Origin: Solibacteraceae bacterium
Lineage (GTDB): Bacteria > Acidobacteriota > Terriglobia > Bryobacterales > Bryobacteraceae
Direction: 5' to 3'
DNA: 64,000 bases
Assembly (NCBI GenBank): GCA_037440765.1
Contig: JBBITL010000018.1
Location: forward strand, 3,295 to 67,294
Program-made: the position numbers and the translations under genes
Part shown: piece after piece, positions 24,041-64,000 of the stretch
How positions within the stretch are numbered: position 1 is the first letter of the stretch
Layout: the number at the start of each line of letters is the position of its first letter
Notes under the pieces: model-generated
The model's database searches: none
Told to the model about the DNA's origin: nothing
What the model saw: the letters and a program-made list of their open reading frames with translations, nothing else

Positions 24041-24478
24041 CTAGCCGCCCCTGACGCGCGCCGAGAAAGCCTCGTATGCGCCCGGCGAGTTCCTGTTCAT
24101 CCACTGGATGAAGGCCTTGGCCACCGTCTCCAGGTTCCTGTACGCGTTCCGGTTCTTGTGTTGCTCGCGCACCTCCGGCAGCACGGCGCGGAACTTCTCC
24201 CAGACGTAGAGCAGCTCGCCGCCGCTCTGAAAGAACAGCTCCTGGTTCAGCACTCCGCCGGTGATGAACGACGCCACCATCTCCCAGTAGCTCAGCACCA
24301 TTCGCGCGTAGGCGCTCTGCTCGGAGCCTGGCGGACAGAGGGCGTTCAGTTCCTCCAGGGTATCGGCCTTGAAGTCGCGGGAGAACCAGTCGCGCGCGGT
24401 CCGCATCTTCGCCTCGCGCCGGAGTTCGTACAGGCGCAGCATCAGGTTCACGTCGTCGTAGGTGGCTTGGGCTTCCAT
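24041..24478 (-). CDS. Conserved-looking hypothetical protein (146 aa)
   Basis: Trimmed to ATG 24478 (MEAQATYDDVNLMLRLYELRREAKMRTARDWF...). Non-low-complexity composition. No family recognised with confidence. Confidence 0.5.
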   Translation of the reverse strand: MEAQATYDDVNLMLRLYELRREAKMRTARDWFSRDFKADTLEELNALCPPGSEQSAYARMVLSYWEMVASFITGGVLNQELFFQSGGELLYVWEKFRAVLPEVREQHKNRNAYRNLETVAKAFIQWMNRNSPGAYEAFSARVRGG

Positions 24479-24531
24479 GCAGTCAGCGTAGCAAAGAGGC
24501 CGCAAAAACGTACCCGCTACTGCCTTCCAGG

Positions 24532-26049
24532 TTGCGGACGGCGCTCGGCTCGTGCTACACAGTACGTGAGGCTGAGAAGCCCGTGAACACACCGACAACT
24601 AATTCAGGCAGGAAACTGGTTACGCTCATCCCCGGAGACGGAGTGGGACCCGAGTGCGTGCGAGCAGCGCAGCGAATCGTCGAGGCCACGGGCGCGGCTG
24701 TCGACTGGGAAGAGCGCCATGCTGGCGCGAGCCTCTTCCGGCAGGGTGTCGCCTCGGGCGTGCCTCAGGATACCATTGATTCGATCCGCAAGACCCGCGT
24801 CGCGCTGAAAGGCCCCCTGGAGACGCCGGTCGGTTTCGGCGAGAAAAGCGCTAACGTCACCCTCCGCAAGCTGTTCGAAACCTACGGCAACATACGGCCT
24901 GTGCGCGAGTTCCCGGGCGTTACGACTCCTTACAGCGGCCGCGGCATCGACCTGGTGGTGGTCCGTGAGAACGTCGAGGACCTCTACGCCGGCATTGAGC
25001 ACATGCAGACCCCCGGGGTCGCACAGTGCCTCAAGCTCATCTCCAACAAAGGCTGCGAGAAGGTGATCCGCCTCGGCTTTGAGCTCGCGGTAGCCGAGGG
25101 GCGCAAGCGCGTGCACTGCGCGACCAAGTCCAACATCATGAAGCTGACCGAGGGGGCGTTCAAGCGCACCTTCGAGAAGGTCAGCGCGGAATACCCGGAC
25201 ATCGAGGCGCAGCACCTCATCATCGACAACTGCGCCCATCAGCTCGTCAAGAAGCCAGAGCAATTCGACGTCATCGTCACCACCAACATGAACGGGGACA
25301 TCATCAGCGACCTGACGTCGGCGCTGGTGGGCGGACTGGGCTTCGCCCCCTCCGCCAACATCGGCAACGAGGCCGCCATCTTCGAGGCGGTGCACGGGTC
25401 AGCTCCGAAGTACGCTGGCAAGAACGTTATCAACCCGACGGCGGTCGTTCTGTCGGCGGCCCTTATGCTGCGCCACCTTGGGGAACTGGAAGCAGCCTCG
25501 GAGATCGAGCACGCCATCCTCGTGACGATCGAGGAGGGCAAGCACCGGACCGGCGATATCGTCGGCTACGACAAGGGCGCCTCAACCAGCGCCTTCACCG
25601 ACGCGGTCATTGCGAACCTGGGCAGGGTCTCGGAGCGCTCGCAGGTCCGGGCCTACAAGCCGATCAGGCTGCCCAGGGTGGACCCGGCCGCCGATTTTAT
25701 CCGGGCCAAAGAGCGGCGCGTGGTGGGCGTCGACGTATTCGTGGAGTCCGCGCTTTCGTCCGAGGAACTCGGCGCCAGCGTCGAGCAACTCGCCGCCGGG
25801 ACGCCCGTGAAGCTGAAGATGGTCTCCAACCGGGGGACCAAGGTCTATCCGGCCATGGGCGCCATCACCGACTGCGTCGACCACTGGCGCTGCCGTTTCA
25901 TTGTCCGGGAGGCGTCCTCCGATCTGAGCGACGCCGCCATCCTCGACCTGGTCAGCCGCATCGCCGGGCGCCACCGCTGGATGCACATCGAGAAGTTGCA
26001 GGAGTTCGACAAGGCCAATGGCTTCACCATGGCGCAGGGCGAGGATTAA
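24532..26049 (+). CDS. icd: Isocitrate dehydrogenase (isocitrate/isopropylmalate dehydrogenase family) with ~150-aa C-terminal extension; true start probably GTG 24583
   Basis: LIPGDGVGPE, EDLYAGIEH, NMNGDIISD, GSAPKYAGK. An extra C-terminal domain follows ..ANLGRVSE. Confidence 0.85.
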   Translation: MRTALGSCYTVREAEKPVNTPTTNSGRKLVTLIPGDGVGPECVRAAQRIVEATGAAVDWEERHAGASLFRQGVASGVPQDTIDSIRKTRVALKGPLETPVGFGEKSANVTLRKLFETYGNIRPVREFPGVTTPYSGRGIDLVVVRENVEDLYAGIEHMQTPGVAQCLKLISNKGCEKVIRLGFELAVAEGRKRVHCATKSNIMKLTEGAFKRTFEKVSAEYPDIEAQHLIIDNCAHQLVKKPEQFDVIVTTNMNGDIISDLTSALVGGLGFAPSANIGNEAAIFEAVHGSAPKYAGKNVINPTAVVLSAALMLRHLGELEAASEIEHAILVTIEEGKHRTGDIVGYDKGASTSAFTDAVIANLGRVSERSQVRAYKPIRLPRVDPAADFIRAKERRVVGVDVFVESALSSEELGASVEQLAAGTPVKLKMVSNRGTKVYPAMGAITDCVDHWRCRFIVREASSDLSDAAILDLVSRIAGRHRWMHIEKLQEFDKANGFTMAQGED

Positions 26050-26063
26050 CAGGTGATGAGCGG

Positions 26064-26082
26064 GCCGCCGGCGAGGGGCGGC
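26064..26082. terminator. GC hairpin (GCCGCC-7-GGCGGC) between convergent icd and lysA
   Basis: Inverted repeat read directly in the 33-nt convergent gap. No U-tract. Confidence 0.3.
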
Positions 26083-27342
26083 TCAGACTGATTCGCCGCG
26101 GATGAGGTCGTCGAGGGTTTCGCGGGCGCGCACGACGCGCCAGTGGCCGCCCTCCACCAGGATCTCCGGCGGGCGGACGCGGGTGTTGTAATTGGACGCC
26201 AGCGCGAAACCGTAGGCGCCGGCCGTGCATACCGCCAGAAGATCGCCGGGAAGCGCGTTAGGCATCTCGCGGTCGAGCGCCAGAAAATCCCCTGATTCGC
26301 AGACCGGACCGACGACATCGGCCAAGACCGTCCCCCGCTCCATGCGCCTTACCGGCAGGATCTCGTGGTGGGACTGGTATAGCGACGGCCGGATCAGGTC
26401 CGTCATGGCGGCGTCCACCACGATGAACTCCCGCGAGAGCGTGCGCTTGCGGTACAGGACCCGCGTGAGGAGCACTCCGGCCTCGCCGACTATTGAGCGG
26501 CCGGGCTCGAGCATCAGGAGCAGACCCTTGCCTTCCACCTTCGCGCGGACCCGTGAGGCGAACTCCCCGACGTCGGGCGTGCGGTCCCCCGGCTTGTAGG
26601 CTACCCCCAGGCCGCCGCCCAGGTCCAGGTGCCGGATGGGCAGTCCCATGCCGCGCAGACGGCCCACAAGGTCCAGCATCCGGTCCAGCGCCTCCAGTAT
26701 GCGGCCGGCATCCAGGATCTGGCTGCCGACGTGACAACTCACTCCTTCGGCGGCCACGTTCCGGCAAATCTGCGCGCGGCGGTAGATTTCCTCCACTTCC
26801 GAGATGTCTATGCCGAACTTGTGCTGCCGCAGGCCGGTGGAGATGTACGGGTGGGCTCCGGCTTCCACGTCGGGGTTGACGCGCAGAGCGATCCGCGCCT
26901 TCACGCCCTGGCGCGCCGCCAGGGAGTCGATGAGCGCAATCTCCGCGCCGGATTCGCAGTTGAAGCTGTGGATCCCGTGACGCAGCGCGTATTCAACCTC
27001 ATCGGCCGTCTTGCCAACCCCGGAGAAGGTCACGCGCGCCGGATCGCCGCCAGCCCGGACTACCCGGAACAGTTCGCCCCCCGAAACCACGTCGAAGCCT
27101 GCGCCGGCTCTTGCCAGCAGCGCCAGCACAGCCAGGCTGGAGTTGGCTTTCACCGCGTAGCAGATCATGTGCGGCAGCCCGTCGAGGCCCGCGTCGTAGG
27201 CCCGGAACCGGTCCAGCACGGCGCCGGCCGAGTACACGTAGCATGGGGTGCCCTCGCGCGCGGCGATGTCTGCCAGGGCCACATCCCCGCAACACAGCGA
27301 CCCGTTCCTGTAGGTAAAAGCGCCGGAGGAGCCTGGGTTCAT
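26083..27342 (-). CDS. lysA: Diaminopimelate decarboxylase
   Basis: 419 aa. CYAVKANS (PLP lysine), GGGLGV, CESGD. Confidence 0.9.
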   Translation of the reverse strand: MNPGSSGAFTYRNGSLCCGDVALADIAAREGTPCYVYSAGAVLDRFRAYDAGLDGLPHMICYAVKANSSLAVLALLARAGAGFDVVSGGELFRVVRAGGDPARVTFSGVGKTADEVEYALRHGIHSFNCESGAEIALIDSLAARQGVKARIALRVNPDVEAGAHPYISTGLRQHKFGIDISEVEEIYRRAQICRNVAAEGVSCHVGSQILDAGRILEALDRMLDLVGRLRGMGLPIRHLDLGGGLGVAYKPGDRTPDVGEFASRVRAKVEGKGLLLMLEPGRSIVGEAGVLLTRVLYRKRTLSREFIVVDAAMTDLIRPSLYQSHHEILPVRRMERGTVLADVVGPVCESGDFLALDREMPNALPGDLLAVCTAGAYGFALASNYNTRVRPPEILVEGGHWRVVRARETLDDLIRGESV

Positions 27343-44792: not shown

Positions 44793-45560
44793 CTACTTTT
44801 TCGCCGGCGGCGCCGAACGAGTCCGGCGCAAGGAGATCTCAGCCGCGATCACTGAGTGCATGGCGGCCAGCCGCACGGCCTTGGGCGTGTCCGGCCGGCT
44901 CAGGATGTCGTAGAGCGCCATGGCCCTGGCCCGCTCCCCGGCGGCCAGCAGTCCCTCGGCGCAGTTCAGGCAGGCGTCGGCGACCGCAGGCCTCAATTCG
45001 CCTTTGGCCCTGGCCAGCGCATCCTGAAGCGGCTTGGCCGCCGCGGTGCTCCCGATCCGGCCCAGCGCCGCGGCGGCGGCCTTGGCCACCGCCGCGTCCG
45101 CCCCCGACATCAGCTTCGCGAGTTGGTCGACCGCCTTGGCGTCCTTGCGTTCCCCGATCGAGTTGATCACGCCCACCAGTGTCTTGCCCTTCGTCTTGAC
45201 GAGCGCGCCGCGCAGAGCCTCGTCCGCCGAGGCGTCCGGCATAGGCTCCAGCGCGAAGCGGGCGTAGTGCGAGAATTGCTCGTTGGCGAGCAATGCGGCC
45301 AGGGCCGGGACCGCTTCCCTGGAGCCCACCTGCGCCAGCTTCTTGCAGGCGACACTGATCTGGAAAGGGGTTGACTTCGGGTCCTTCAGGATCTGAACGA
45401 GTCGCGCCTCTGATAGTGGGAAAACCTTGTCCGCGTCAAGCTCCGGCGGGATTGGAGGCCGTTGCATGCCGCCAAACCCGCCGCCGCGTCCTCCACGGCC
45501 GGGTTCCGGGGGCGCGCCAGGCGGCTGTACGGGGGGCTTCATCTGTCCGGGTTCTTGCAT
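44793..45560 (-). CDS. HEAT-repeat protein with Gly/Pro/Arg-rich N-terminus (paralog of 62365..63195)
   Basis: Trimmed to MQEPGQMKPP.. (255 aa). PGRGGRGGGFGG, then HEAT/PBS-lyase-like helices (REAVPALAALL, DAKAVDQLAKLM). 20 nt after the oxidoreductase stop. Confidence 0.7.
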   Translation of the reverse strand: MQEPGQMKPPVQPPGAPPEPGRGGRGGGFGGMQRPPIPPELDADKVFPLSEARLVQILKDPKSTPFQISVACKKLAQVGSREAVPALAALLANEQFSHYARFALEPMPDASADEALRGALVKTKGKTLVGVINSIGERKDAKAVDQLAKLMSGADAAVAKAAAAALGRIGSTAAAKPLQDALARAKGELRPAVADACLNCAEGLLAAGERARAMALYDILSRPDTPKAVRLAAMHSVIAAEISLRRTRSAPPAKK

Positions 45561-45580: not shown

Positions 45581-46834
45581 TTATATCCGCCACGGCTCCC
45601 GCATGGCGCGCGTGCGCATGCGGTTGGCCTCTGCGTCGCCCACGAACTCCTCGCTGGCCGGGTCCCACGCCAGCTTCCGCCCGAGCTGGGCGGAGATCTG
45701 CGCCGCGTGGCATGTGATGTGCGTGTTGCATGTGGCAACGTGATTGGCGCTGGTCATCGACCTGGATTTCACGCAGTCCAGGAACTCCTGAAGGTGGTAA
45801 GCCAGCGCGAGGTTCGCCGGCCGGAAGGGGTGCAGCTCGCCCTTCAGGTTGTCGGACACCTCCACCTTCCCGCTGTCGCCCGTCTCGACCCATCCGTCGG
45901 ACCCCTCGAACCGCACGCTGCATGAGCCCAGGCCCATCCACGGTCTGGTGCCATGGTCGCCTCCCTGGTTGCGGATGACGAGCCTGACGCCGCTGGCATA
46001 CTGGCACAGGACGTAGTGGGGCTCGGCGGGGCTGTCCTTGCAGTAAGGAACGTATTCGACGGCCTGGGTGTGGTCCGCCCTGGCGGCCCACTGGCACAGG
46101 TCCACGGTGCGGGTGCCCCACTCCAGGATCGCGCCGCCGTGGAAGTCGAAGTAGGTGGCCCAGGAGGCGCCCCCGCGCGTGTAGTTGGAGTTGTAGGGCC
46201 GCATCGGACAGGGCCCCAGCCAGCGGTCCCAGTCCAGGACCTGCCGGTCCGGTTCAGGCTCGGCGGGCAGCCAGCTATGGGTGGTGATGGCAGACTGGCC
46301 GGCGATGGTCTGGGCGTGCATGGTCTGCAACCTGCCCAGCTTGCCGCTGCGGGCCAGTTCCACTGCGAACATGAAGTTCTGGCCGTTGCGACGCTGGCAG
46401 CCTGCCTGGTAGATGCGGCCGTAGCGCGCGAAAGTGTCGCGCAGCGCCTGGTCCTGCGCGATGGTGGAGCCACAGGGCTTCTCGCAGTAGACATCCATTC
46501 CCGCCTTGGCGGCGTAGATCGAGAGCAGGGCGTGCCAGCGCTCCCCGGCCGCGATCAGCAGCGCGTCAATGTCGTCCCGGGCCAGCAGTTCCTCGTACTC
46601 GCGGTACATCCTGGCGTCCTGGTTGCCGTACCGCTTGTCGATCATGCTCTTGACCACCTCGCGGCGGTCGTTTCTGACGTCGCACACGGCCACCATCTGC
46701 ACCTCGGGATAGCTGAGCAGGGCCTGCATGTCGCCCCCGCCGCGCCCGCCAATGCCGAGGCCCGCCATCACGATCTTGTCGCTGGGCGCGACCGCTCCCA
46801 CCCGCTGGCCCAGCACGCGGCTGGGCACTATCAT
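45581..46834 (-). CDS. Gfo/Idh/MocA-family oxidoreductase; Tat leader truncated (paralog of 60928..62334)
   Basis: 417 aa. GLGIGGRG Rossmann motif, CEKP motif, DWDRWLGPC, GLGSCSVRFEGSDGWVETGDSG, WDPASEEFVGDAEANRMRTRAMREPWR. The in-frame upstream codons ..LRQFPLCSPAAAP resemble the h-region of the paralog's Tat signal. Confidence 0.8.
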   Translation of the reverse strand: MIVPSRVLGQRVGAVAPSDKIVMAGLGIGGRGGGDMQALLSYPEVQMVAVCDVRNDRREVVKSMIDKRYGNQDARMYREYEELLARDDIDALLIAAGERWHALLSIYAAKAGMDVYCEKPCGSTIAQDQALRDTFARYGRIYQAGCQRRNGQNFMFAVELARSGKLGRLQTMHAQTIAGQSAITTHSWLPAEPEPDRQVLDWDRWLGPCPMRPYNSNYTRGGASWATYFDFHGGAILEWGTRTVDLCQWAARADHTQAVEYVPYCKDSPAEPHYVLCQYASGVRLVIRNQGGDHGTRPWMGLGSCSVRFEGSDGWVETGDSGKVEVSDNLKGELHPFRPANLALAYHLQEFLDCVKSRSMTSANHVATCNTHITCHAAQISAQLGRKLAWDPASEEFVGDAEANRMRTRAMREPWRI

Positions 46835-49573
46835 GGGGGCCGCCGCCGGGGAACATAGGGGAAATTGTCGTAGTTCATGGCCTTGGACCAGGTCCAGTTG
46901 CCGCCGATCTGGAGGCCGCCCCGCACCCGGCGGTTCAATTGCAGCTGCATGGAGTGGTAGTTGGTGCTCCCGTCAAAGCTCTGGTAGACAACGGCCTGGT
47001 AGCCGCGGAGCGGCCGGAGGAAGTTGTCCTGCATCAGCGTGCAGGGAGCCGCCAGGGGTAGCGGGCTGGCCGGCAGCGCCGTGGTCGGATCGCAGGAGGA
47101 AAGCTGGCGCTTGGTTCCGTAAGGCGCGGTGTTGACATCGATTGTCCGGCGCTGGTGACGGCCCCCGGTGCCGACGCAGGCAAGGTCCAGGAAGACGCCG
47201 AAACCCAGGTTCCGCTGGATGCCCAGGCTCCAGTTGTAGGTCGAGGGCAGAACCGGCGTCCGCTGGGTGGATACCGTGACGGTCGGCCCCAGGACTGCGG
47301 CCAGAGAGCCGGAAAACAGGGTGGTCACGCTGCTGTTGTAATAGAAGAGGTTGTTCTGCAAGGGTGAGATCTGGGCCGTGTTGAGGATGACGTCATCTCC
47401 GCCGCTGCGGTCGAACGTCATGCCGAAGCCTCCGCGTACGGCTGTGGTGCCGTTGCCGAAAACGTCGTAGGCGAAGCCGAACCGTGGTCCCACTCCGACG
47501 GGCGGCCTGTTCAGCAAGTGCTGCTCATAGACCTCAGTGGCCTGGTAGAACGTGCCGCTGCCCGGCCTCCCAGGTCCAGCGTCACCCGCCGGTTGACCCT
47601 CCAGTTGTCCTGGGCGAACCATTCCAACTGGCGATAACGGCCGAAGCTCCGGATGCGGTTGTCCGATTCCTGACAGCTCTGGAAGATCCCCATCAGAGCG
47701 TTGGAGAAGCCGTAGTTGCTGTCCAGAGGGTTGGTGGTCTGCGCCACGGGAGTGAAGTTGAAGGCGCCCGAGAACACCGACTCGCGTGGCGCGTTGCGAA
47801 TAGCGAATTCGCCGTACAGGCCGAACTTCAGGTTGTGCGTGCTCCGCACCCATGACAGGTTGTTGGTGAAGTTGTAGATGATGTTGCGCGCCCGGAATGG
47901 AAACCGCTGGTCGGCATTGAAGGTGGGGCTCGCCCCGGGCACGCCGTAGGTGACGGCGGGGACGTAGTTCTCAGGATTTATCCGCGGGTTGATCTGCGGC
48001 AGATTCAGCCCCAGCTTCACGCGGTCGTTCCTGTCCAGTTCCCGCTGCTCCAGATAAAGGTATTGCCGGGTGGAGTTGAACCCGAAGGTTGACTCATTGA
48101 CCAGCGACGGCGCGAACGTGTGAATCACCGTCGCCATGCTTCCGATAGCCTGGATCGCGTATTCCGCCCCGGTCTGGGGCCAGGTGTTGCTGGCCGAGAC
48201 GGACCCGGTGCCCCGCACGCTGCGGGCGCTTTGAAAGCTGCGGCTGAACCGGGCGTAGGCGATGGTCCGCGGCTCCACGTTCCAGTCCAGCCGCAAAGTG
48301 TCGGTATCCCTCGGGCTCTGGTCTTTGAAAGTTTCCGACCAGTTGTAGCGGAATTGGGAATCGAGCGCCCCCGCCTCGCATTCGGCCTGACTCGGATAGT
48401 TGCAGCGCGGCAGCATCTGCAACATCTTGCGCATGGCCGGGTCGAACAGCGACTGCGGCACCTGGTTGCCGGGGAAGGGGACGTTCGTCCCGGCACGGTG
48501 GTCGTTAATCGTGATAGCCCGGTTATTGGTGTCGCGTATCCTGCTGAAGTCGCCGTTCAACTCCGCTTGTGTCGGGACTTTCAGTTGAGCCGTAGCGGCG
48601 GGCGGGATCTGTTTCAGCCATTCCTGGGCCCAGAAGAAGAAGAGCCTCTCGCGGCTTCGATTGAAGCCGGTTCCGGGAATGAACAGAGGACCGCCGATGG
48701 TGTATCCGGGATTGTGAAAGCGATAGACGGCGCGCCTGGCCGTGCCATCCGGCTTGAGCCTGGTCCGCAGGGCGTTGTCGAACCAAGGGTTGGCATTGAA
48801 CCACTCATTGCGCTCGTACAGATAGGCAGTGCCGCTCAATTTCCTGGTGCCGGCCCGGGTGACCACGCTTACCATTCCGCCGGCCCGGGCGCCGTACTCG
48901 GCCTGGTAAGTGGCCAGCGCGACCTTGACTTCCCCTATGGTGTCCATGTTCGGCGAAAGAGCCCCCTGGTTGCCGCCCGTGCCTTGCGAGCCTGTGTCCG
49001 CGTTGGTGACGCAGTCCAGGGTGACAATGAGCTGTCCTCCTACGCCGCCGCTGATGGTCGTGCCCACCACTCCCGGCAGCACCCGCAGGGCGCTCAGGAA
49101 GGCGTTGCTTCCCGTGCGGTCCGCCGTGAGCGGGAGATCCGCGATCTGAGACTGGCTGACCGTCGCGATGCGCTCGCTGCTGTGTGTTTGCAGGCGCACC
49201 ATCTCCGCCTCCACGGAGACGCGGGTGCTAAGGTCGCCCAGTTCCAGCCGGATCTGGCCCAAGGCCGGACGCTCGTTGGAGCTAAGCCGGATGTCTTTCA
49301 GCTCGTATGTCTTGAAGCCCTGGCTTGCCACGTTTAGCTCATAAGTGCCGGCCACCAGCTCCGTGAAAACGAACCACCCCGACGTGTCGGTGGAGACCTG
49401 TCGCGTCTGTCCGGTCAGCGCATTGCGGACCTGGACCGGCGCTCCCACGATGATGGCCCGCCCGGATCCGCGACGTATCCGGACAGCTGGCCCGTCAAGC
49501 CCTGGCTGAACGCCGTTGGAACACCGGCCATCAAGAAGGCGAGAACCCCCGCCACCACTCTTGAGCTCCCCAT
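46831..49573 (-). pseudogene. TonB-dependent receptor (TBDR-2) with two frameshifts and a C-terminal truncation
   Basis: ATG 49573 gives MGSSRVVAGVLAFLMAGVPTAFSQGLTGQLSGYVADPGG. Frame is lost in the G/C run 49455-49465, then resumes as AIIVGAPVQVRNALTGQ.. (ORF 47511..49448). A second shift near 47560-47578 leads into ORF 46831..47853. The sequence ends at ..NWTWSKAMNYDNF, roughly 190 aa short of the other two receptors. Confidence 0.75.
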
Positions 49574-57239: not shown

Positions 57240-60200
57240 ATGAAGTCAATGAAAGCAGTGGTGTCTCTGCTTATCTTAATCTCGCTGCTGGCCGTGTTGC
57301 CGGCAGCCAACGCCCAGAGCATCACCGGGCAGGTCTCCGGACGGGTGGTCGATCCGGGCCGCGCCATCGTTGTCGGCGCCACCGTCCAGTTGACGGCGGA
57401 TCTCACGCAGCAGGTCCGCGAGTTTACCACGGATGCCCAGGGCACGTTCGTGTTCACCGGGCTGATACCTGGCAACTACAACCTGCGCGTCACGCACGCA
57501 GGTTTTCGGGCCTATGACCTGAAGGCCATTGCCGTCACCGCCCAGCAGAGGGTGAATCTTCCGGATGTCATCCTCACCGTGGGCGACGTGGCGACGTCGG
57601 TGGAGGTACAGGCCGCCGCGGTCTACGTGGCCACCGACAGCTCGGACCGCAGCGTGAGCATCGGTCTCACCCAGATTGCGGACACCCCGTTGCGGGGCCG
57701 GAACCCGCTGTCGCTCATCCTCACGCTGCCGGGGGTCCAGACGCTAGCCTCCAGCGACAACCGCGGCTGGGGCGGAGGGGGCATTCCGGCCGTCAACGGC
57801 GGGCAGACCGGCCAGGTGATCCTCAACATCGACGGCGTAGCCAGCCAGGACTCCGGCAATCTGAACCCCGGATACCTGTCGCCGAGCATCGACGCCATCG
57901 GCGAAGTGCGCCTGCTGGTATCCAACTACTCGGCCGAATATGGAGGGCGCACCGGCGGGCAGTACAACCTGACCATCAGGAGCGGCGGCGCAGACTATCG
58001 CGGGACCGCGTACTACTACTGGCGGCATGAGCAGTTCAACGCCAACGAGTGGTTCAACAACAAACTGCTGCGCCCCAAGCCGAGGTACCGGTTCCAGAAT
58101 TTCGGCGGCTCCATCGGGGGACCGCTGCTGATCCCCGGCACCGGGTTCAACCAGAGCCGGACCAAGGTGTTCTTCTTCTTCCTCGTGGATCACACGCGAA
58201 ACCGGGAGACCATCGACAACTCCTTCACCATGCCCTCGGCGATGGAGCGGGCCGGGGACTTCTCGGACACCAGGACTACGACCGGAGCCCTGATACCGAT
58301 CACCGATCCGACCACCAAGCTGCCCTACGCCGGAAACAGGATTCCCGCCAGCATGATCAGCCCCGCCGGGCAGGCTATGCTGAATCTGTTCCCGATGCCG
58401 GACCCGCTGGGATTCGCCCTCGATACATCCGGCGCGCGCAGGTTCAACTACCGGGCGTTGCTCGGCAGATCGCGCCCGAACGAGAACAAGATCCTGCGCG
58501 TGGACTACAACATCGGGCCGAAGACGACCTCCTTTGTGCGCCTGATGCAGGACTACCAGGCCGTTGACGGGTACGCCGGCACGGTTGGTCCTCAGGGCGG
58601 CAACTGGGGACAATTCCCTCACAGCTACAACGTCCGGGCCGCCGGGGCCGTGGGCACGCTGGTTCACACCTTCACTCCGACCCTGGTCAACGAATCCACC
58701 TGGGGAGTCAATCGCGGCAGGCAAGGGGTTAATCCTCTGGATGAGGTGACCAGCACCGCGACCGGCGGCGCCAAGACATACGAGGACAGCCTGCTGCCGC
58801 TCAAGGACGCAACAGGCAAGACCATTGCGCTGCCGCGCATCTTCCCCGGCAGCAACACCATGGGTCTGAAGCCCGGCGTGCACTTCGGCTTCCCCACCGG
58901 TTTCAGCGCGCAGTCGGCCGGCCAGACCATCTCAAGCGTCCCGGTGTTCCGCCACGATCCCCGCTGGCCGTTCGTGGGCACCGACACGGTGCAGACCATC
59001 TCCAACAAGACCACCTGGATCAGCGGCGCTCACAACCTGAAGGTGGGAGTCTACATTGAGCGGATGGCCCGCAACGTAAGCGTCTACTCGATCCACAACA
59101 CCGCCGGGACCTACTACTTCGGCTCGGACCGCGCTGCCCCCCTTGACACCGGGTTCCCGTACTCCAATGCGCTGATCGGCAGCATTTTCGCTTACGGCGA
59201 CGACAACATCAAGCAGATCAACCGCGCGCGCTACACGCAGATCGAGTGGTACGTGCAGGATACCTGGAAAGTCGTTCCCAGGCTCACGCTGGATCTCGGG
59301 TTGCGTTTCCACCGGGTGGGCGACCTGTATTCCAAGGGCGCCAAACTCGGCTTCTTCCGCGAAGCGGATTATGACCGCAGCAAGAGCGGGCAACTGCTGT
59401 TCCCGGCCTGCGCCGTCCCGACCGCCGGCACCTGCGCCACCGCCAACCGGATCGCCATCAACCCGGTGACCGGGGCGAGGTTCCCCTTCGTCCGGCAGGG
59501 CACCTTCGACAAGGCCACATACCCTGTCAACGGCATGCCATATTCGGGCATCCGCCTGTATGACAGCCGTTTCTTCAACATCGGCCCCATCAAGTTGGCC
59601 CCGCGCCTGGGCTTTGCCTACGACGTGTTCGGCAACGGGAAGACGGCTGTTCGCGGCGGCTTCGGCTCCATCGTGGGCCGCAACTGGACGGTGGACAGTA
59701 TCGGAGCGGGGGCTGACGGCATGGGCCCCATAAACGCGCCGCCCACGTTCCTTGCGCCGATTGTCCTGTACACCGACTTCAACAGCCTGGCGACGGCTGA
59801 CAACTACCTGACGCCCCAGACGGTGTTCGGCGGGCCGCAGGATGAGAAACCCATCACCACCTACAACTGGAGCTTCGGCATCCAGCATGAGGTCGGCCGC
59901 GGTATGATCGCAGACGTGTCCTACGTGGGCAACACCGTCCGGCATGGCTACGGCCAGGCGATCGACTTCAACGCCGTGCCGCCGTACACCACCTGGAACC
60001 CGACCGACGGCCAGATCCAGCGGTTCCGCGACCCCACCGGCGCCGGCTTCTACTCCACCGACCTGATCCGGTCGATGGTGGGCTTTAACGGTCTCAGCAG
60101 CATTCCCATATGGACGTTCCTCCGGAACGCGAACTATCACTCTCTCCAGACGCAGTTGAACCGCCGGACTGGCAACCTGCAATGGAATCTGAACTACACC

Positions 60201-60890
60201 TTCGCCAAGCAGATCACCTACAACAACACCACCGGCTTCCAGTGGGTGGACCGCAAGCTCAGCAAGTCGATCAGCGGCCGCAAGCACGCCGTTAATTTCA
60301 ACTTCGGATACGGGCTTCCGGCCGGCAGCAGTCTGCTTGGACGGCACGTGATCGCCCGGCACGCGCTTGACGGCTGGAGAATCAACGGCAACGGCGCCAT
60401 CTTCAGCGGCACGCCCTTCAGCTTCGGTTGCGGCGCCACGGCAGCCCCGGCCGGCCAGTGGACCGGCACGCCCACCGGCGGCATCCCGTTCCGCTGCCAG
60501 ATGGGAGACAGCATTTTCCTCCCGGCGGGGCAGTTCCCGTCGGCCACCGAGGACACCAGGTTGCAGTACGCGTTCAACGCGGACAACTTCCAGTTGCCGC
60601 CGCCGGCGTCGCTGGGCATCGGCAACACCCCGCCGGACTTGCTCTGGGGGCCAGGGGCGTTCAACCTTGATCTTTCCGTGGGCAAGCAGTTTCCGGTCGC
60701 GGAGGGCAGGTCGCTCGAGATCAGGGCCGAGTCCTTCAACACGCTGAACCATTTCAACCCCGGCAACCCGAACACCACAATCACCCGGCACTTCACGACC
60801 GGGGCTCAGACCAATGCCAGCTTTGGCATTATCAGCGGCGCGCAGGTGGGCTCCCGCCGGGTGATTCTATCGGCAAGATTCAGATTCTGA
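57240..60890 (+). CDS. TonB-dependent receptor with CarboxypepD_reg N-domain (TBDR-3)
   Basis: Trimmed to MKSMKAVVSLLILISLLAVLPAANAQ (RBS GGAAGGGAAGGGG upstream). GRVVDPGRAIVVGATVQLT, plug/barrel strings, C-terminal SARFRF. Confidence 0.9.
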   Translation: MKSMKAVVSLLILISLLAVLPAANAQSITGQVSGRVVDPGRAIVVGATVQLTADLTQQVREFTTDAQGTFVFTGLIPGNYNLRVTHAGFRAYDLKAIAVTAQQRVNLPDVILTVGDVATSVEVQAAAVYVATDSSDRSVSIGLTQIADTPLRGRNPLSLILTLPGVQTLASSDNRGWGGGGIPAVNGGQTGQVILNIDGVASQDSGNLNPGYLSPSIDAIGEVRLLVSNYSAEYGGRTGGQYNLTIRSGGADYRGTAYYYWRHEQFNANEWFNNKLLRPKPRYRFQNFGGSIGGPLLIPGTGFNQSRTKVFFFFLVDHTRNRETIDNSFTMPSAMERAGDFSDTRTTTGALIPITDPTTKLPYAGNRIPASMISPAGQAMLNLFPMPDPLGFALDTSGARRFNYRALLGRSRPNENKILRVDYNIGPKTTSFVRLMQDYQAVDGYAGTVGPQGGNWGQFPHSYNVRAAGAVGTLVHTFTPTLVNESTWGVNRGRQGVNPLDEVTSTATGGAKTYEDSLLPLKDATGKTIALPRIFPGSNTMGLKPGVHFGFPTGFSAQSAGQTISSVPVFRHDPRWPFVGTDTVQTISNKTTWISGAHNLKVGVYIERMARNVSVYSIHNTAGTYYFGSDRAAPLDTGFPYSNALIGSIFAYGDDNIKQINRARYTQIEWYVQDTWKVVPRLTLDLGLRFHRVGDLYSKGAKLGFFREADYDRSKSGQLLFPACAVPTAGTCATANRIAINPVTGARFPFVRQGTFDKATYPVNGMPYSGIRLYDSRFFNIGPIKLAPRLGFAYDVFGNGKTAVRGGFGSIVGRNWTVDSIGAGADGMGPINAPPTFLAPIVLYTDFNSLATADNYLTPQTVFGGPQDEKPITTYNWSFGIQHEVGRGMIADVSYVGNTVRHGYGQAIDFNAVPPYTTWNPTDGQIQRFRDPTGAGFYSTDLIRSMVGFNGLSSIPIWTFLRNANYHSLQTQLNRRTGNLQWNLNYTFAKQITYNNTTGFQWVDRKLSKSISGRKHAVNFNFGYGLPAGSSLLGRHVIARHALDGWRINGNGAIFSGTPFSFGCGATAAPAGQWTGTPTGGIPFRCQMGDSIFLPAGQFPSATEDTRLQYAFNADNFQLPPPASLGIGNTPPDLLWGPGAFNLDLSVGKQFPVAEGRSLEIRAESFNTLNHFNPGNPNTTITRHFTTGAQTNASFGIISGAQVGSRRVILSARFRF

Positions 60891-60927: not shown

Positions 60928-62334
60928 ATGAAAGAGAAAAAGAACAAGAGGGTTTCACGAAGGAGCTTTGTGACTGCTACGGGCGCCGCTGCTGCGGCGC
61001 CCCTTCTTTTGCCGGGGACCGTCCTCGGGCAAGCCGGAGGCGCGCCTCCGGGCCAGGCGCCCGGCCCGCCGGGTGGACAGGGCGCCGGGCCAGCGGTGGT
61101 CGCCCGGGCCGGTCTGCTCGACAGGATCGTTTTCGCCGGCATAGGTATCCGCGGACGCGGCATGAACGTCCTGCGGCAGATGATCACCGACGACCGGGTG
61201 CATTTCACGGCCATCGCCGACGTGCAGGAGAGTTCCCGCGAGGCCGTGAAGAGCTTCGTGGACGGATACTACGGCAACAACGAGTGCCGGATGTACCGCG
61301 ATCCGGCGGAGATTATGGCGCGCCAGGACGTGGACGCCCTGCTGATCGCCACCAGCGACCGCTGGCACGGCCCCATGGGGATCTGGGCCGCCCAGGCCGG
61401 CAAGGACATGTTCTGCGAGAAGCCGGCAGCCATGTCCATAGCGGAGAGCTACGCCCTGGCGGACAATGTGCGCCGCTATGGCGTCGTATACCAGTCCGGC
61501 GCGCAGCGCAAGAATCAGTTCGCCTTCGAGTTTGCGGTGGGGCTGGCCCGCAGCGGCATGCTCGGCAGGCTGCTGGCCGTGCACGCCGATACCGCCATCG
61601 GCCTGGGGACGGTCGACGAGGGCGGACACGGATGGTGGCCGGAAGAGAAGCCGGAGCCGGACCCGCTGGTGATCGATTGGGACAAGTGGCTTGGGCCGTG
61701 CCTGTGGCGGCCCTGGAATTCCCGCTACCCCACCCAGGGCCGCGGCCAGTTCTGGGATTTCCACGCGGGCCTGCTGGAGTGGTCCTCTCACACCGTCGCC
61801 ATGGCGCAATGGGCGGCCGACATGGAGCACACCGAGCCCGTCGAGTACGTGCCCGAGGGCGGCGATTTCAGAGGAGACGGCCTGATCAACCGGTACACGA
61901 TCTACTGCAAGTACGCCAACGGGGTCCAACTGATCCTGCGCAATCATAGCTGGAGAGGCCTTGGTTCATGCAGCAACCTGTTCGAGGGCACCGATGGGTG
62001 GGTCGAAACGGGCGACAGCGGCAGGATCGAGGTGTCGCCGAACCTGAAGTCGCTGGTGCCCACCAGGACGGGGGTCAGGCTAGACCCCACCGGCGAGCAC
62101 ATAAGGGAGTTCATCCACAGCATCCGTTCGCGGATACCGCCGCGGGCGAATGCCGAAGTGACCGCCCACACCCACGTGGCCTCCCACGCGGCCTGGATCG
62201 CGGCGCAGTTGAACCGCAAGGTTGTGTGGGATCCGGCCAAGCGCGCGTTCATAGGCGACGAGGAGGCCAACCGCATGCGCAGCCGGGCCTACCGGGAGCC
62301 GTGGCGTGTGGAATCGCTGGCTACCACGATGTAG
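60928..62334 (+). CDS. Tat-exported Gfo/Idh/MocA-family oxidoreductase (possibly GH109-like NAD-dependent glycosidase)
   Basis: 468 aa. Twin-arginine leader KRVSRRSFVTATGAAAAAPLLL, Gly/Pro linker, GIGIRGRG, CEKP, DWDKWLGPC, GLGSCSNLFEGTDGWVETGDSG. Confidence 0.85.
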   Translation: MKEKKNKRVSRRSFVTATGAAAAAPLLLPGTVLGQAGGAPPGQAPGPPGGQGAGPAVVARAGLLDRIVFAGIGIRGRGMNVLRQMITDDRVHFTAIADVQESSREAVKSFVDGYYGNNECRMYRDPAEIMARQDVDALLIATSDRWHGPMGIWAAQAGKDMFCEKPAAMSIAESYALADNVRRYGVVYQSGAQRKNQFAFEFAVGLARSGMLGRLLAVHADTAIGLGTVDEGGHGWWPEEKPEPDPLVIDWDKWLGPCLWRPWNSRYPTQGRGQFWDFHAGLLEWSSHTVAMAQWAADMEHTEPVEYVPEGGDFRGDGLINRYTIYCKYANGVQLILRNHSWRGLGSCSNLFEGTDGWVETGDSGRIEVSPNLKSLVPTRTGVRLDPTGEHIREFIHSIRSRIPPRANAEVTAHTHVASHAAWIAAQLNRKVVWDPAKRAFIGDEEANRMRSRAYREPWRVESLATTM

Positions 62335-62364
62335 GCGGGAGCATAGGATAAGGAGAGAACGAAA

Positions 62365-63195
62365 ATGCAAGCACCTGGACAGACGCAACAAGTACCGGGA
62401 GCGCCGGGACGCGGAGAACCCGGGCGCGGGGCCGCAGGGCAGGACCAGGCGCCCGCGCGAGGAGCAGGACGCGGGCCGGCGCCCAAGGTTCCTCCGGAAT
62501 TCGATGCCCTTCCCATCTGGACCTCGGATGCGCCGAAACTTGTCGCCATGGTGAAGGACCCCAATTCGACCCTTTTTCAGAAGGCGATCGCGTGCAAGAA
62601 GTTGTCCATCTCCGGAGGAAGGGAGGCGATAGCGCCCATGGCGGCGCTGCTGAATCATCCTCAACTGGCGTGTTACGCCCGCTTCGGGATGGAGCCGAAC
62701 CCGGATCCGTCCGTGGACGACGCATTCCGCGCCGCTCTTCCCACGCTGAAGGGCAAGCTTCAGGTGGGCGTGATTCATTCGATCGGCTTCCGCAAGGACG
62801 CCAAGGCGCTGGACGCCCTCGGCAAGCTGATCGGCGACAAAGACCCCGAGGTCGCCGGGGCCGCCGCGGCCTCGGTGGGAATGATCGGCGGGCCACAGGC
62901 CGCCAAGATCTTGCAGGCGGCTCTGAAGACCACCAAGGCGCCCGTGTTTCCAGTGGTGGCCCGTGCCTGCCTGATGTGCACAGAGGGGTTGATGGCGAGC
63001 AACCGCGCCCGGGCGCTGGAGCTGTACACCGAGCTCAGCGCAACCTCGATGCCCAAGCCGGTGCGCCTGGCGGCGCTGCGCGTGCTGAACGCCGCGGGGC
63101 CCGCGCCTCCCGGCGCCAGGAAGTGGCCGGCGCCGACCGGCGCCGCCGCCGATGCCGACACCAGCGGCTTCCTGGGCCGCGGGCGGCAGAACTAG
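62365..63195 (+). CDS. HEAT-repeat protein with Gly/Pro/Arg-rich N-terminus
   Basis: 276 aa. RBS AAGGAGAG. PGRGEPGRGAAGQ..ARGAGRGP, then HEAT-like helices (REAIAPMAALL, DAKALDALGKLI). No hydrophobic signal peptide. Confidence 0.7.
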   Translation: MQAPGQTQQVPGAPGRGEPGRGAAGQDQAPARGAGRGPAPKVPPEFDALPIWTSDAPKLVAMVKDPNSTLFQKAIACKKLSISGGREAIAPMAALLNHPQLACYARFGMEPNPDPSVDDAFRAALPTLKGKLQVGVIHSIGFRKDAKALDALGKLIGDKDPEVAGAAAASVGMIGGPQAAKILQAALKTTKAPVFPVVARACLMCTEGLMASNRARALELYTELSATSMPKPVRLAALRVLNAAGPAPPGARKWPAPTGAAADADTSGFLGRGRQN

Positions 63196-63283: not shown

Positions 63284-64000
63284 ATGCGAAAAGCACAACT
63301 TCTTTTGGCGGTCGTGGTGGTGGTGGCGGTTGCGGTGGTGGCTCAGCAGCGGGGGGGCCGAGGCGTGGGTGCGCCTGACGACAGCGCTGGCTTCGAGGCG
63401 ATCTTTGACGGCAAGTCGCTGGCCAATTGGGACGGCGAGCCGGGCTTCTGGCGGGTCGCCGATGGCTGCATCGTCGGTGAAACCACGGCCGACAATGTGT
63501 TGAAGCAGAACACGTTTTTGGTCTGGCGTGGAGGATCGGTCCGGGATTTTGAGCTGAAGCTGGAGTACAGGCTCACCGAGGCCGCCAACAGCGGCGTCCA
63601 GTACAGGAGCGTGATGGTGCCCGAGGTTTCCAAGTGGGCCATGCGCGGCTACCAGGCGGACATGGACGGCGCCAACAACTACACCGGCATGGTCTTTGAA
63701 GAACGCGGGCGCGGGTTCCTGGCGCCCCGGGGCAGGTTCAACCGGCTGGCCGGGGACAAGACCATGAAGCAGGTGGCCATTCTCGGCGAGGCGGACACCC
63801 TCAAGGCGGCCATCAAGACCGGCGCGGAATGGAACCAGATGCACATTATCGCCAAGGAGAACATGCTGGTTCACGTCATCAACGGACATGTCACGGCGGT
63901 CTTCCTGGACGAGGAGCCGCAGGGCCGCGCCACGGAGGGACTGCTTGGCCTCCAGCTTCACGTCGGCAAGCCCATGAAGAACGAGTTCCGCAACATTCTG
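63284..64000 (+). CDS. Secreted DUF1080 (PF06439) protein, 3' end outside the window
   Basis: Not in the ORF track (no stop inside the window); I translated it by hand from ATG 63284: MRKAQLLLAVVVVVAVAVVAQQ..FEAIFDGKSLANWDGEPGFWRVADGCIVGE..FLVWRGG..FELKLEYRL..ANSGVQYRS...LLGLQLHVG. Confidence 0.8.
   Translation, partial: MRKAQLLLAVVVVVAVAVVAQQRGGRGVGAPDDSAGFEAIFDGKSLANWDGEPGFWRVADGCIVGETTADNVLKQNTFLVWRGGSVRDFELKLEYRLTEAANSGVQYRSVMVPEVSKWAMRGYQADMDGANNYTGMVFEERGRGFLAPRGRFNRLAGDKTMKQVAILGEADTLKAAIKTGAEWNQMHIIAKENMLVHVINGHVTAVFLDEEPQGRATEGLLGLQLHVGKPMKNEFRNIL

Follow-up and report, generated by a model that had tools for sequence, protein, structure and literature searches.

Why should a HEAT-repeat protein that carries no export signal be encoded, twice within one stretch of DNA, directly behind a dehydrogenase of a type that leaves the cytoplasm by twin-arginine translocation (Tat)? 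The question is raised by a 64,000-nucleotide (nt) stretch (hereafter the window) of contig JBBITL010000018.1 from a Solibacteraceae bacterium of the order Bryobacterales (Acidobacteriota). The two genes concerned are HEAT1 (62365..63195, plus strand, 276 amino acids (aa)) and HEAT2 (44793..45560, minus strand, 255 aa), which follow the oxidoreductase (OX) gene OX1, of the Gfo/Idh/MocA family and PF19051 (C2) type (60928..62334, plus strand), and its paralogue OX2 (45581..46834, minus strand). A first-pass annotation, made from the letters of the sequence, had suggested that such proteins are Tat hitchhikers or new accessory subunits, and had held a cytoplasmic scaffold or chaperone role to be equally possible. 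Our analysis makes a physical partnership between the HEAT protein and the dehydrogenase likely, and gives roughly even chances to the fuller proposal that HEAT1 and HEAT2 are minimal dedicated subunits of a periplasmic PF19051-type dehydrogenase, for which we infer co-export with the enzyme via Tat.

The positions, spacing and missing leaders of the two HEAT open reading frames (ORFs) were confirmed as first described. HEAT1 starts 30 nt behind the stop codon of OX1 and HEAT2 20 nt behind that of OX2, each is preceded by its own Shine-Dalgarno sequence (AAGGAGAG and GAGGAGAGGAG, respectively), and a longer ORF upstream is impossible for either gene because of in-frame stops in the spacers; the spacer between OX1 and HEAT1 (62335..62364, plus strand) is in frame with both genes and holds two TAG codons. 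The ~200 aa of HEAT repeats claimed for each protein were recovered with Pfam HEAT_2 (PF13646, gathering threshold 27.7 bits), which HEAT1 matches at 49.6 bits (E = 4.9e-13) and HEAT2 at 45.5 bits (E = 9.3e-12), and the two share 53% identity over 206 residues (E = 4e-55). Neither N-terminus (HEAT1 PGRGEPGRGAAGQ..ARGAGRGP; HEAT2 PGRGGRGGGFGG) contains a hydrophobic stretch, nor does one precede the PPEF motif in any of 47 Bryobacterales-type HEAT proteins. OX1, the partner in the intact right-hand cassette, does have the expected twin-arginine leader (KRVSRRSFVTATGAAAAAPLLL, residues ~1-35), with SRRSF followed by a hydrophobic region and then by a P/G/Q/A linker. Of the partner OX proteins, 45 allowed the start to be located, and every one of these has a twin-arginine motif; the count is partly circular, as the motif itself guided the placing of the starts. 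The genome also encodes TatC (208 bits).

The enzyme itself was recognised by its Pfam matches (GFO_IDH_MocA 1.1e-13, GFO_IDH_MocA_C2 4.2e-19 and a weak TAT_signal match for OX1), it shares 47% identity with OX2, and both carry the PF19051 C-terminal domain. The profile of the BT_2158 glycoside 3-dehydrogenase family (NCBIfam NF058561) matched the N-terminal half only and stayed far short of its cut-off of 750 bits, with 88 bits in OX1 and 115 bits in OX2. Among solved structures, OX1 is closest in fold to the Alistipes glucoside-3-dehydrogenase AL3 (8tdf), with a template modelling (TM) score of 0.63 on the target at ~20% identity.

The pairing of the two genes holds across genomes. A first homologue search returned 468 clusters, all of them HEAT_2-only proteins of ~230-295 aa. 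In addition, 52 species-representative loci of Bryobacterales and Pirellulaceae (the latter, of the Planctomycetota, with three loci) were compared; an OX gene was found directly upstream on the same strand in 51/51 loci that were testable, that is, with enough upstream DNA. The three Pirellulaceae genomes contain 7-12 copies each of the HEAT module, with OX directly upstream in 12/12 further loci, and HEAT2 shares 50-54% identity with the Pirellulaceae module. Within an even sample of 301 Acidobacteriota genomes the module occurred in 14, where OX lay upstream in 16 of the 18 testable places. Neighbours other than OX differ between loci. P0278 and P0272, two short forms that have diverged to ~45-47% identity with HEAT2, start 14-17 nt behind a 425-aa PF19051 protein with a compact Tat leader, and one divergent short-form pair stands as a two-gene unit alone amid unrelated genes. 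The co-conservation on which an accessory-subunit role depends is thereby extended outside this genome, to acidobacteriotal and planctomycetotal loci. The identity matrices of OX and HEAT are strongly correlated (r = 0.89 over 21 pairs including within-genome paralogues, a value reached by 0/2000 Mantel permutations) and the nearest neighbours agree for the two proteins in 17/21 pairs, so that OX-HEAT pairs duplicate and diverge as units.

The nature of the HEAT protein became clearer from its relatives. When 1.84 billion cluster representatives were searched with a profile built from the short forms, 15974 matched at E<=1e-3 and 5966 at E<=1e-10, most of the top matches being ~650-aa HEAT proteins (E 1e-45 to 1e-65) in which query positions ~54-240 aligned to residues ~35-225. 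In these proteins the module sits right behind a typical signal peptide, whose n-region is charged and whose core is hydrophobic. Re-classification of representatives yielded 102 long proteins with a signal peptide and 20 short ones without, together with a few that were ambiguous or truncated; the long members of the family have ~650-1100 residues and a signal peptide of the general secretory (Sec) type in nearly all cases. HEAT1 and HEAT2 consist of the N-terminal ~190-residue module only, the signal peptide and the ~450 or more further HEAT residues not being present. Pairs of a Tat-exported OX with a long signal-bearing HEAT protein, with or without DUF1080 or ThuA, occur in Planctomycetota and Acidobacteriota and have the same dehydrogenase family, gene order and module as the window, whereas the window proteins are the module alone, without signal peptide or enzyme domain and with a disordered P/A/Q/G tail and a PPEF cap. 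The search found no long form in the window's genome, where, besides HEAT1 and HEAT2, only a distantly related third case occurs.

Natural fusions give the module a functional setting. It is joined to DUF1080 in one protein (P0196) and to a signal peptide and ThuA in two others (P0268, P0199), and in a Pirellulaceae locus (L055) a Tat-exported OX is followed by an 841-aa protein that begins with a signal peptide and the module, continues with further HEAT repeats and has a DUF1080 domain at its C-terminus. Proteins of the DUF1080 family act in the periplasm as 3-keto-glycoside lyases/hydratases (bioRxiv 10.1101/2024.03.25.586180; PMC8121099), and ThuA is named, in a passage of PMC8121099 that cites earlier work, as the partner of ThuB, a dehydrogenase whose product is 3-keto-trehalose. 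Because its relatives carry Sec signals and are fused to DUF1080 or ThuA, the module can be taken to work outside the cytoplasm, and by these sequence comparisons it would belong to an exported 3-keto-sugar machinery. One further candidate, a 428-aa metagenome gene call with GFO_IDH_MocA_C2 and HEAT_2 matches (P0209), was considered as a natural OX-HEAT fusion and rejected as most likely a frameshift or gene-calling artefact, because its middle section reads as an out-of-frame translation of GC-rich DNA.

A quick maximum-likelihood tree built from 127 modules placed 12 of the 13 signal-less short forms in one clade (93 in the Shimodaira-Hasegawa-like approximate likelihood ratio test, SH-aLRT), to which HEAT1 and HEAT2 belong; it is nested in a well-supported clade that also contains signal-bearing forms. 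The signal/short label changes twice on this tree, compared with 12.5 times when shuffled. Members of the short clade have diverged to <50% identity and all named members are Acidobacteriota. The tree suggests that the signal-less short forms are essentially one lineage with a single origin.

What remains in this lineage has a consistent layout. HEAT1 comprises a disordered P/G/Q/A/R tail (residues 1-40), a cap motif KVPPEFDALPIW (41-52), a solenoid (53-244) and a linker ending in WPAPTGAAADADTSGFLGR (245-276). The AlphaFold2 model of HEAT1 is an all-helical solenoid of 12-13 helices (mean predicted local distance difference test score (pLDDT) 83.8, predicted TM score (pTM) 0.72), with residues 1-30 disordered, PPEFDALPIW packed as an N-terminal cap (41-50, pLDDT 85) and a poorly defined C-terminal peptide (pLDDT 52-57). 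Sequence and fold searches of the PDB with the HEAT protein returned designed alphaRep and armadillo binders only, which gave no functional lead, and HEAT1 is therefore best described as a generic protein-binding surface without enzyme-like features.

The RGG/Pro-rich character ascribed to the N-termini held in part. The quoted sequences are present in the window, but RGG is not conserved: tail length ranges from 12 to 56 residues among 47 orthologues, with a median of 34, and the residues in it are mainly P (25%), A (21%), Q (15%) and G (12%), R making up only 5%. Tails open with a conserved M-(P)-Q-x-P/T-G/A-Q-T-Q, their length varies always in frame, two related short forms from another family are almost tail-less, and the partner OX has a linker of the same composition behind its Tat signal. 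A reading of the tail as a functional RGG domain of the RNA-binding type was rejected on the grounds of its unconserved composition and length and the two nearly tail-less forms; judged from the alignment, the tail is a variable flexible P/A/Q/G linker. A disulphide between C77 and C205, two residues described as invariant, was considered as a marker of periplasmic location and set aside; C77 is replaced in some family members. At the other end of the protein (residues 245-276; 63097-63192), HEAT1 orthologues have a Pro-rich linker and then a nearly invariant WPAPTGxAAxxDxSGFLGR, a peptide that HEAT2-type proteins lack, these ending in ..ETSLSRPR. In its sequence the peptide looks like a short docking motif, and it may recruit another component, for example the DUF1080 enzyme or a receptor.

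A physical interaction between OX1 and HEAT1, as the hitchhiker proposal requires, is also predicted by structure modelling. The two proteins were modelled with AlphaFold2 as a single chain of 755 residues, in which 60928-63192 was translated with the two spacer TAG codons read as glycine, so that the domains were linked by the 11-residue spacer and HEAT1's own ~40-residue disordered tail; the alignment contained 24 similarly paired rows in addition to unpaired rows. The model reached a pTM of 0.76, against 0.72 for HEAT1 alone as the control, with 496 of 755 residues (66%) at pLDDT >=70 and 192 below 50. As pTM is normalised by full length, two undocked domains are estimated to give ~0.45-0.5, and since the value exceeds the ordered fraction (0.76 vs. 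0.66) the OX body and the solenoid should lie in one rigid frame, which implies a confidently predicted dock between the two proteins. The Tat leader and linker (OX1 residues 1-64) have a pLDDT of only 26-31 in the joint model, and the leader is therefore not bound by the solenoid in this model.

We propose the following course of events. The ancestral partner would have been a HEAT solenoid of 650-1100 residues with its own Sec signal, often fused to DUF1080 or ThuA, which in one acidobacterial lineage was cut to the ~190-residue module and lost its signal peptide. The short HEAT protein would now be translated from the same mRNA right behind the dehydrogenase and bind, while still in the cytoplasm, to the body of the enzyme in its folded and NAD(P)-loaded state, and not to its signal peptide, after which the enzyme's twin-arginine signal would carry it across the membrane in an act of Tat hitchhiking. 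With a mature OX of ~46 kDa and a HEAT protein of ~29 kDa, the complex is within the size range of known Tat cargo complexes such as DmsAB and FdnGH. Once in the periplasm the HEAT protein would stay bound, presumably as a subunit with a structural or adaptor role in a unit that cleaves glycosides by oxidation and then elimination, and in which a TonB-dependent receptor (TBDR) and a DUF1080 protein would also be used. The first-pass suggestion of a hitchhiker or accessory subunit is thus favoured by the pairing, the predicted complex and the exported relatives, while for co-export itself, including binding before export, co-translocation and a lasting periplasmic role, we infer rather than observe each step.

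Several points weigh against this proposal. A protein that has lost its signal peptide could just as well have moved to a task in the cytoplasm. OX2 has no twin-arginine motif, and therefore HEAT2, in the decaying left arm, cannot currently hitchhike. The mirrored OX and HEAT trees show a stable pairing and not contact, as co-duplication of adjacent genes suffices to produce them, and the docking of OX1 and HEAT1 is read from pTM alone, in an artificial single chain with a shallow paired alignment of 25 rows, most of them 70-90% identical. Finally, a DUF1080 gene lies near the pair in only ~9/52 Bryobacterales-type loci, so that a role in bridging OX and DUF1080 is not general; a home-made DUF1080 hidden Markov model (HMM) found the gene in only 8 of 55 loci, a lower bound, as it missed at least one copy (L003) shown by Pfam.

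Among the alternatives, the one that survives best keeps the partnership and changes its place. The short HEAT protein could be a cytoplasmic holding or assembly chaperone that binds new OX until NAD(P) is bound or the dimer is formed and is released at or before the Tat translocase, in which case it would be a co-opted copy of the periplasmic partner's docking module that never leaves the cell. TorD, DmsD and NapD are Tat proofreading chaperones, encoded beside their Tat substrate, whose signal peptide they bind. The HEAT proteins share with such chaperones (TorD/DmsD/NarJ, NapD) their small size, the missing signal peptide, a gene right behind that of a Tat substrate and, with the TorD family, an all-helical fold as is typical of Tat chaperones, and the predicted complex with OX would fit this role equally well. 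They show no sequence relationship to these chaperones, however, with no TorD, DmsD or NapD match in Pfam or NCBIfam at E<=0.01, and HEAT1 is modelled on the enzyme body with the Tat leader free and undocked, where a proofreading chaperone would hold the signal peptide. The homologous module is moreover exported in nearly all relatives and fused to periplasmic enzymes, hence the ancestral partner surface is used in the periplasm, and in this genome no long exported form is at hand to step in once the enzyme has left the cytoplasm. The cytoplasmic role, once rated equal to export, is consequently still viable but weakened by the exported and periplasm-fused relatives, and we now regard it as unlikely.

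The same missing signal and tight gene coupling would suit a cytoplasmic inhibitor or regulator that silences a potentially harmful OX before export, or some other cytoplasmic role unrelated to export. This possibility has no specific support, the relatives of the module are periplasmic, and a constitutive subunit is the better fit to the 1:1 gene pairing that exported long forms show throughout the family, which makes it improbable. That the short HEAT genes are functionless truncated relics of the long form, kept by operon inheritance only, is very improbable: the left arm is visibly decaying (its receptor gene frameshifted, the OX2 leader deleted) and the short forms do look like 5' fragments of long genes, but the ORFs are intact in >50 species, start, frame, cap motif and adjacency are all kept at <50% identity, the variable tail changes length always in frame, and HEAT1 orthologues have a conserved extra C-terminal motif.

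If the short HEAT proteins are indeed co-exported subunits, they would differ from the established cases. Hydrogenase-2 (HybO/HybC) and dimethyl sulphoxide reductase (DmsAB) are Tat hitchhiker complexes. Signal-less subunits are also co-exported in the gamma-alpha FAD-glucose dehydrogenase of Burkholderia cepacia (PMC6719666) and in E. coli PaoABC (PMC4273604). As in the window, one subunit of these complexes carries the twin-arginine signal and a neighbouring gene encodes the signal-less partner, and several are periplasmic sugar or aldehyde dehydrogenases; the known complexes are assembled before export. Their passengers, however, are cofactor-bearing catalytic or electron-transfer subunits, whereas here the passenger would be a cofactor-less HEAT solenoid of presumed export. 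To our knowledge, no hitchhiking partner of an NAD(P)-type Gfo/Idh/MocA enzyme has been described. The putative function is closest to that of two clusters for oxidative (3-keto) cleavage of glycosides, BT2156-BT2160 in Bacteroides thetaiotaomicron and AL1-AL5 in Alistipes (PMC8121099; bioRxiv 10.1101/2024.03.25.586180), which likewise pair a Tat-exported, periplasmic Gfo/Idh/MocA glycoside 3-dehydrogenase with tightly bound NAD with a DUF1080 lyase/hydratase, but have no HEAT protein, and OX1 and OX2 lie outside the BT_2158 equivalog family. A literature search for HEAT proteins linked with Gfo/Idh/MocA, DUF1080 or ThuA found nothing relevant.

Other resemblances reflect the repeat type. The HEAT proteins share the Pfam HEAT_2/HEAT_PBS repeat type with CpcE/CpcF, NblB and the alphaRep designs, their best structural matches being alphaRep binders; there is no bilin context as for CpcE and NblB, and the likeness is one of repeat architecture only. 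An identity as NblB or CpcE was rejected as a repeat-type match (16-22 bits vs. NCBIfam cut-offs of 300-330), as was adenylosuccinate lyase (29.8 bits vs. a cut-off of 310), a chance or repeat-type match.

What is new here is a minimal signal-less lineage, with a comparative argument for its action outside the cytoplasm, beside a partner family that is widespread and uncharacterised: the very large family of PF19051-type dehydrogenases comes with an obligatory HEAT-repeat partner. Glycoside cleavage by oxidation and elimination was recognised recently, and the organisation and recycling of its NAD-bound dehydrogenases in the periplasm are current questions (bioRxiv 10.1101/2024.03.25.586180). 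The partnership is easy to test because the window holds its smallest version (~200 folded residues), with two small genes and one prediction of twin-arginine-dependent co-export. If that prediction is true, the short HEAT protein would represent a new class of Tat passenger and a subunit able to change its export route in evolution. The result would also offer a way into the function of genes left unannotated as "HEAT repeat domain-containing", of which there are thousands in Acidobacteriota of soils, in Planctomycetota and in further phyla. A broader view, which we offer tentatively and hold to be somewhat doubtful, is that PF19051 dehydrogenase and HEAT protein form an obligate heteromeric periplasmic enzyme in thousands of bacteria, with the short form a switch of one subunit from Sec export to Tat piggy-back and the ~200-residue module the dehydrogenase-binding part of the whole family. 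On this view no solenoid without a cofactor would have been known before as a Tat passenger, and no Gfo/Idh/MocA enzyme of the NAD(P) type would have been known to have a hitchhiking partner.

The surroundings of the two pairs in the window differ in their state of preservation. The right-hand cassette runs from a TonB-dependent receptor gene (TBDR-3, 57240..60890, plus strand; signal peptide MKSMKAVVSLLILISLLAVLPANAQ and a CarboxypepD_reg-type N-terminus) through OX1 and HEAT1 to a DUF1080 / 3-keto-disaccharide-hydrolase-family protein (63284..64000, plus strand; Pfam PF06439, E 6.1e-35), which has its own Sec signal peptide (MRKAQLLLAVVVVVAVAVVAQQ) and overruns the window end. Relatives of TBDR-3 with 51-66% identity adjoin the pair in three other loci (L017, L031 and L046). 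In the left-hand cassette the receptor gene TBDR-2 (46831..49573, minus strand) is frameshifted and 3'-truncated; it persists as overlapping ORF fragments (46831-47853 and 47511-49448) and breaks off at ..NFPYVPRRRPP*. One deletion took its 3' end together with the twin-arginine region of OX2, which is now joined to the truncated receptor gene (minus strand, 46780-46972), leaving only a leader remnant ..AAAPMIVPSRVLGQ where intact relatives have MTTRRQILKSAVAPMIVPSVVLGQ or MPTRRSVLTASVAPLIVPSFVLGQ. The cassette is decaying, with OX2 and HEAT2 still open, and the decay may be real or an artefact of metagenome assembly.

Within OX1, residues 225-280 (61600-61767) form a Trp-rich, strongly conserved segment (..PLVIDWDKWLGPCLWRPWNSRYP..) with pLDDT <50 in the monomeric model, which may need a second OX subunit or the substrate. 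In AL3, a loop of one monomer regulates the active site of the other monomer.

Some Bryobacterales carry OX-HEAT pairs in tandem. In one locus (L051:4454-8800) identity is 99% between the HEAT modules and 88% between the OX genes, and in another (L005:974-6825) two tandem pairs have a DUF1080 gene between them, so the whole pair was recently duplicated in both. Elsewhere in the window's own genome (contig C47:22156-26607), a cluster of Tat-signal UxuA-like and xylose-isomerase-like TIM barrels and a Tat-signal PF19051 OX (24352-25695) includes, 12 nt behind the OX, a gene (25708-26607) for a HEAT_2 protein of 299 aa without a signal. Its relationship to HEAT1 and HEAT2 is only distant, its matches to the same long-form proteins are weak, and it is rare, occurring in 4 genomes of the 301-genome phylum sample. 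Lastly, the two divergent short-form pairs (L088:11857-12717 and L090:7593-12100) have genes for PSCyt/PSD-domain proteins, which are cytochrome-domain proteins of planctomycete type, within a few kb, with DUF1501 also present in the second; these families are common in such genomes and their proximity may be due to chance, but a cytochrome partner could bear on the re-oxidation of the bound NAD(P)H.

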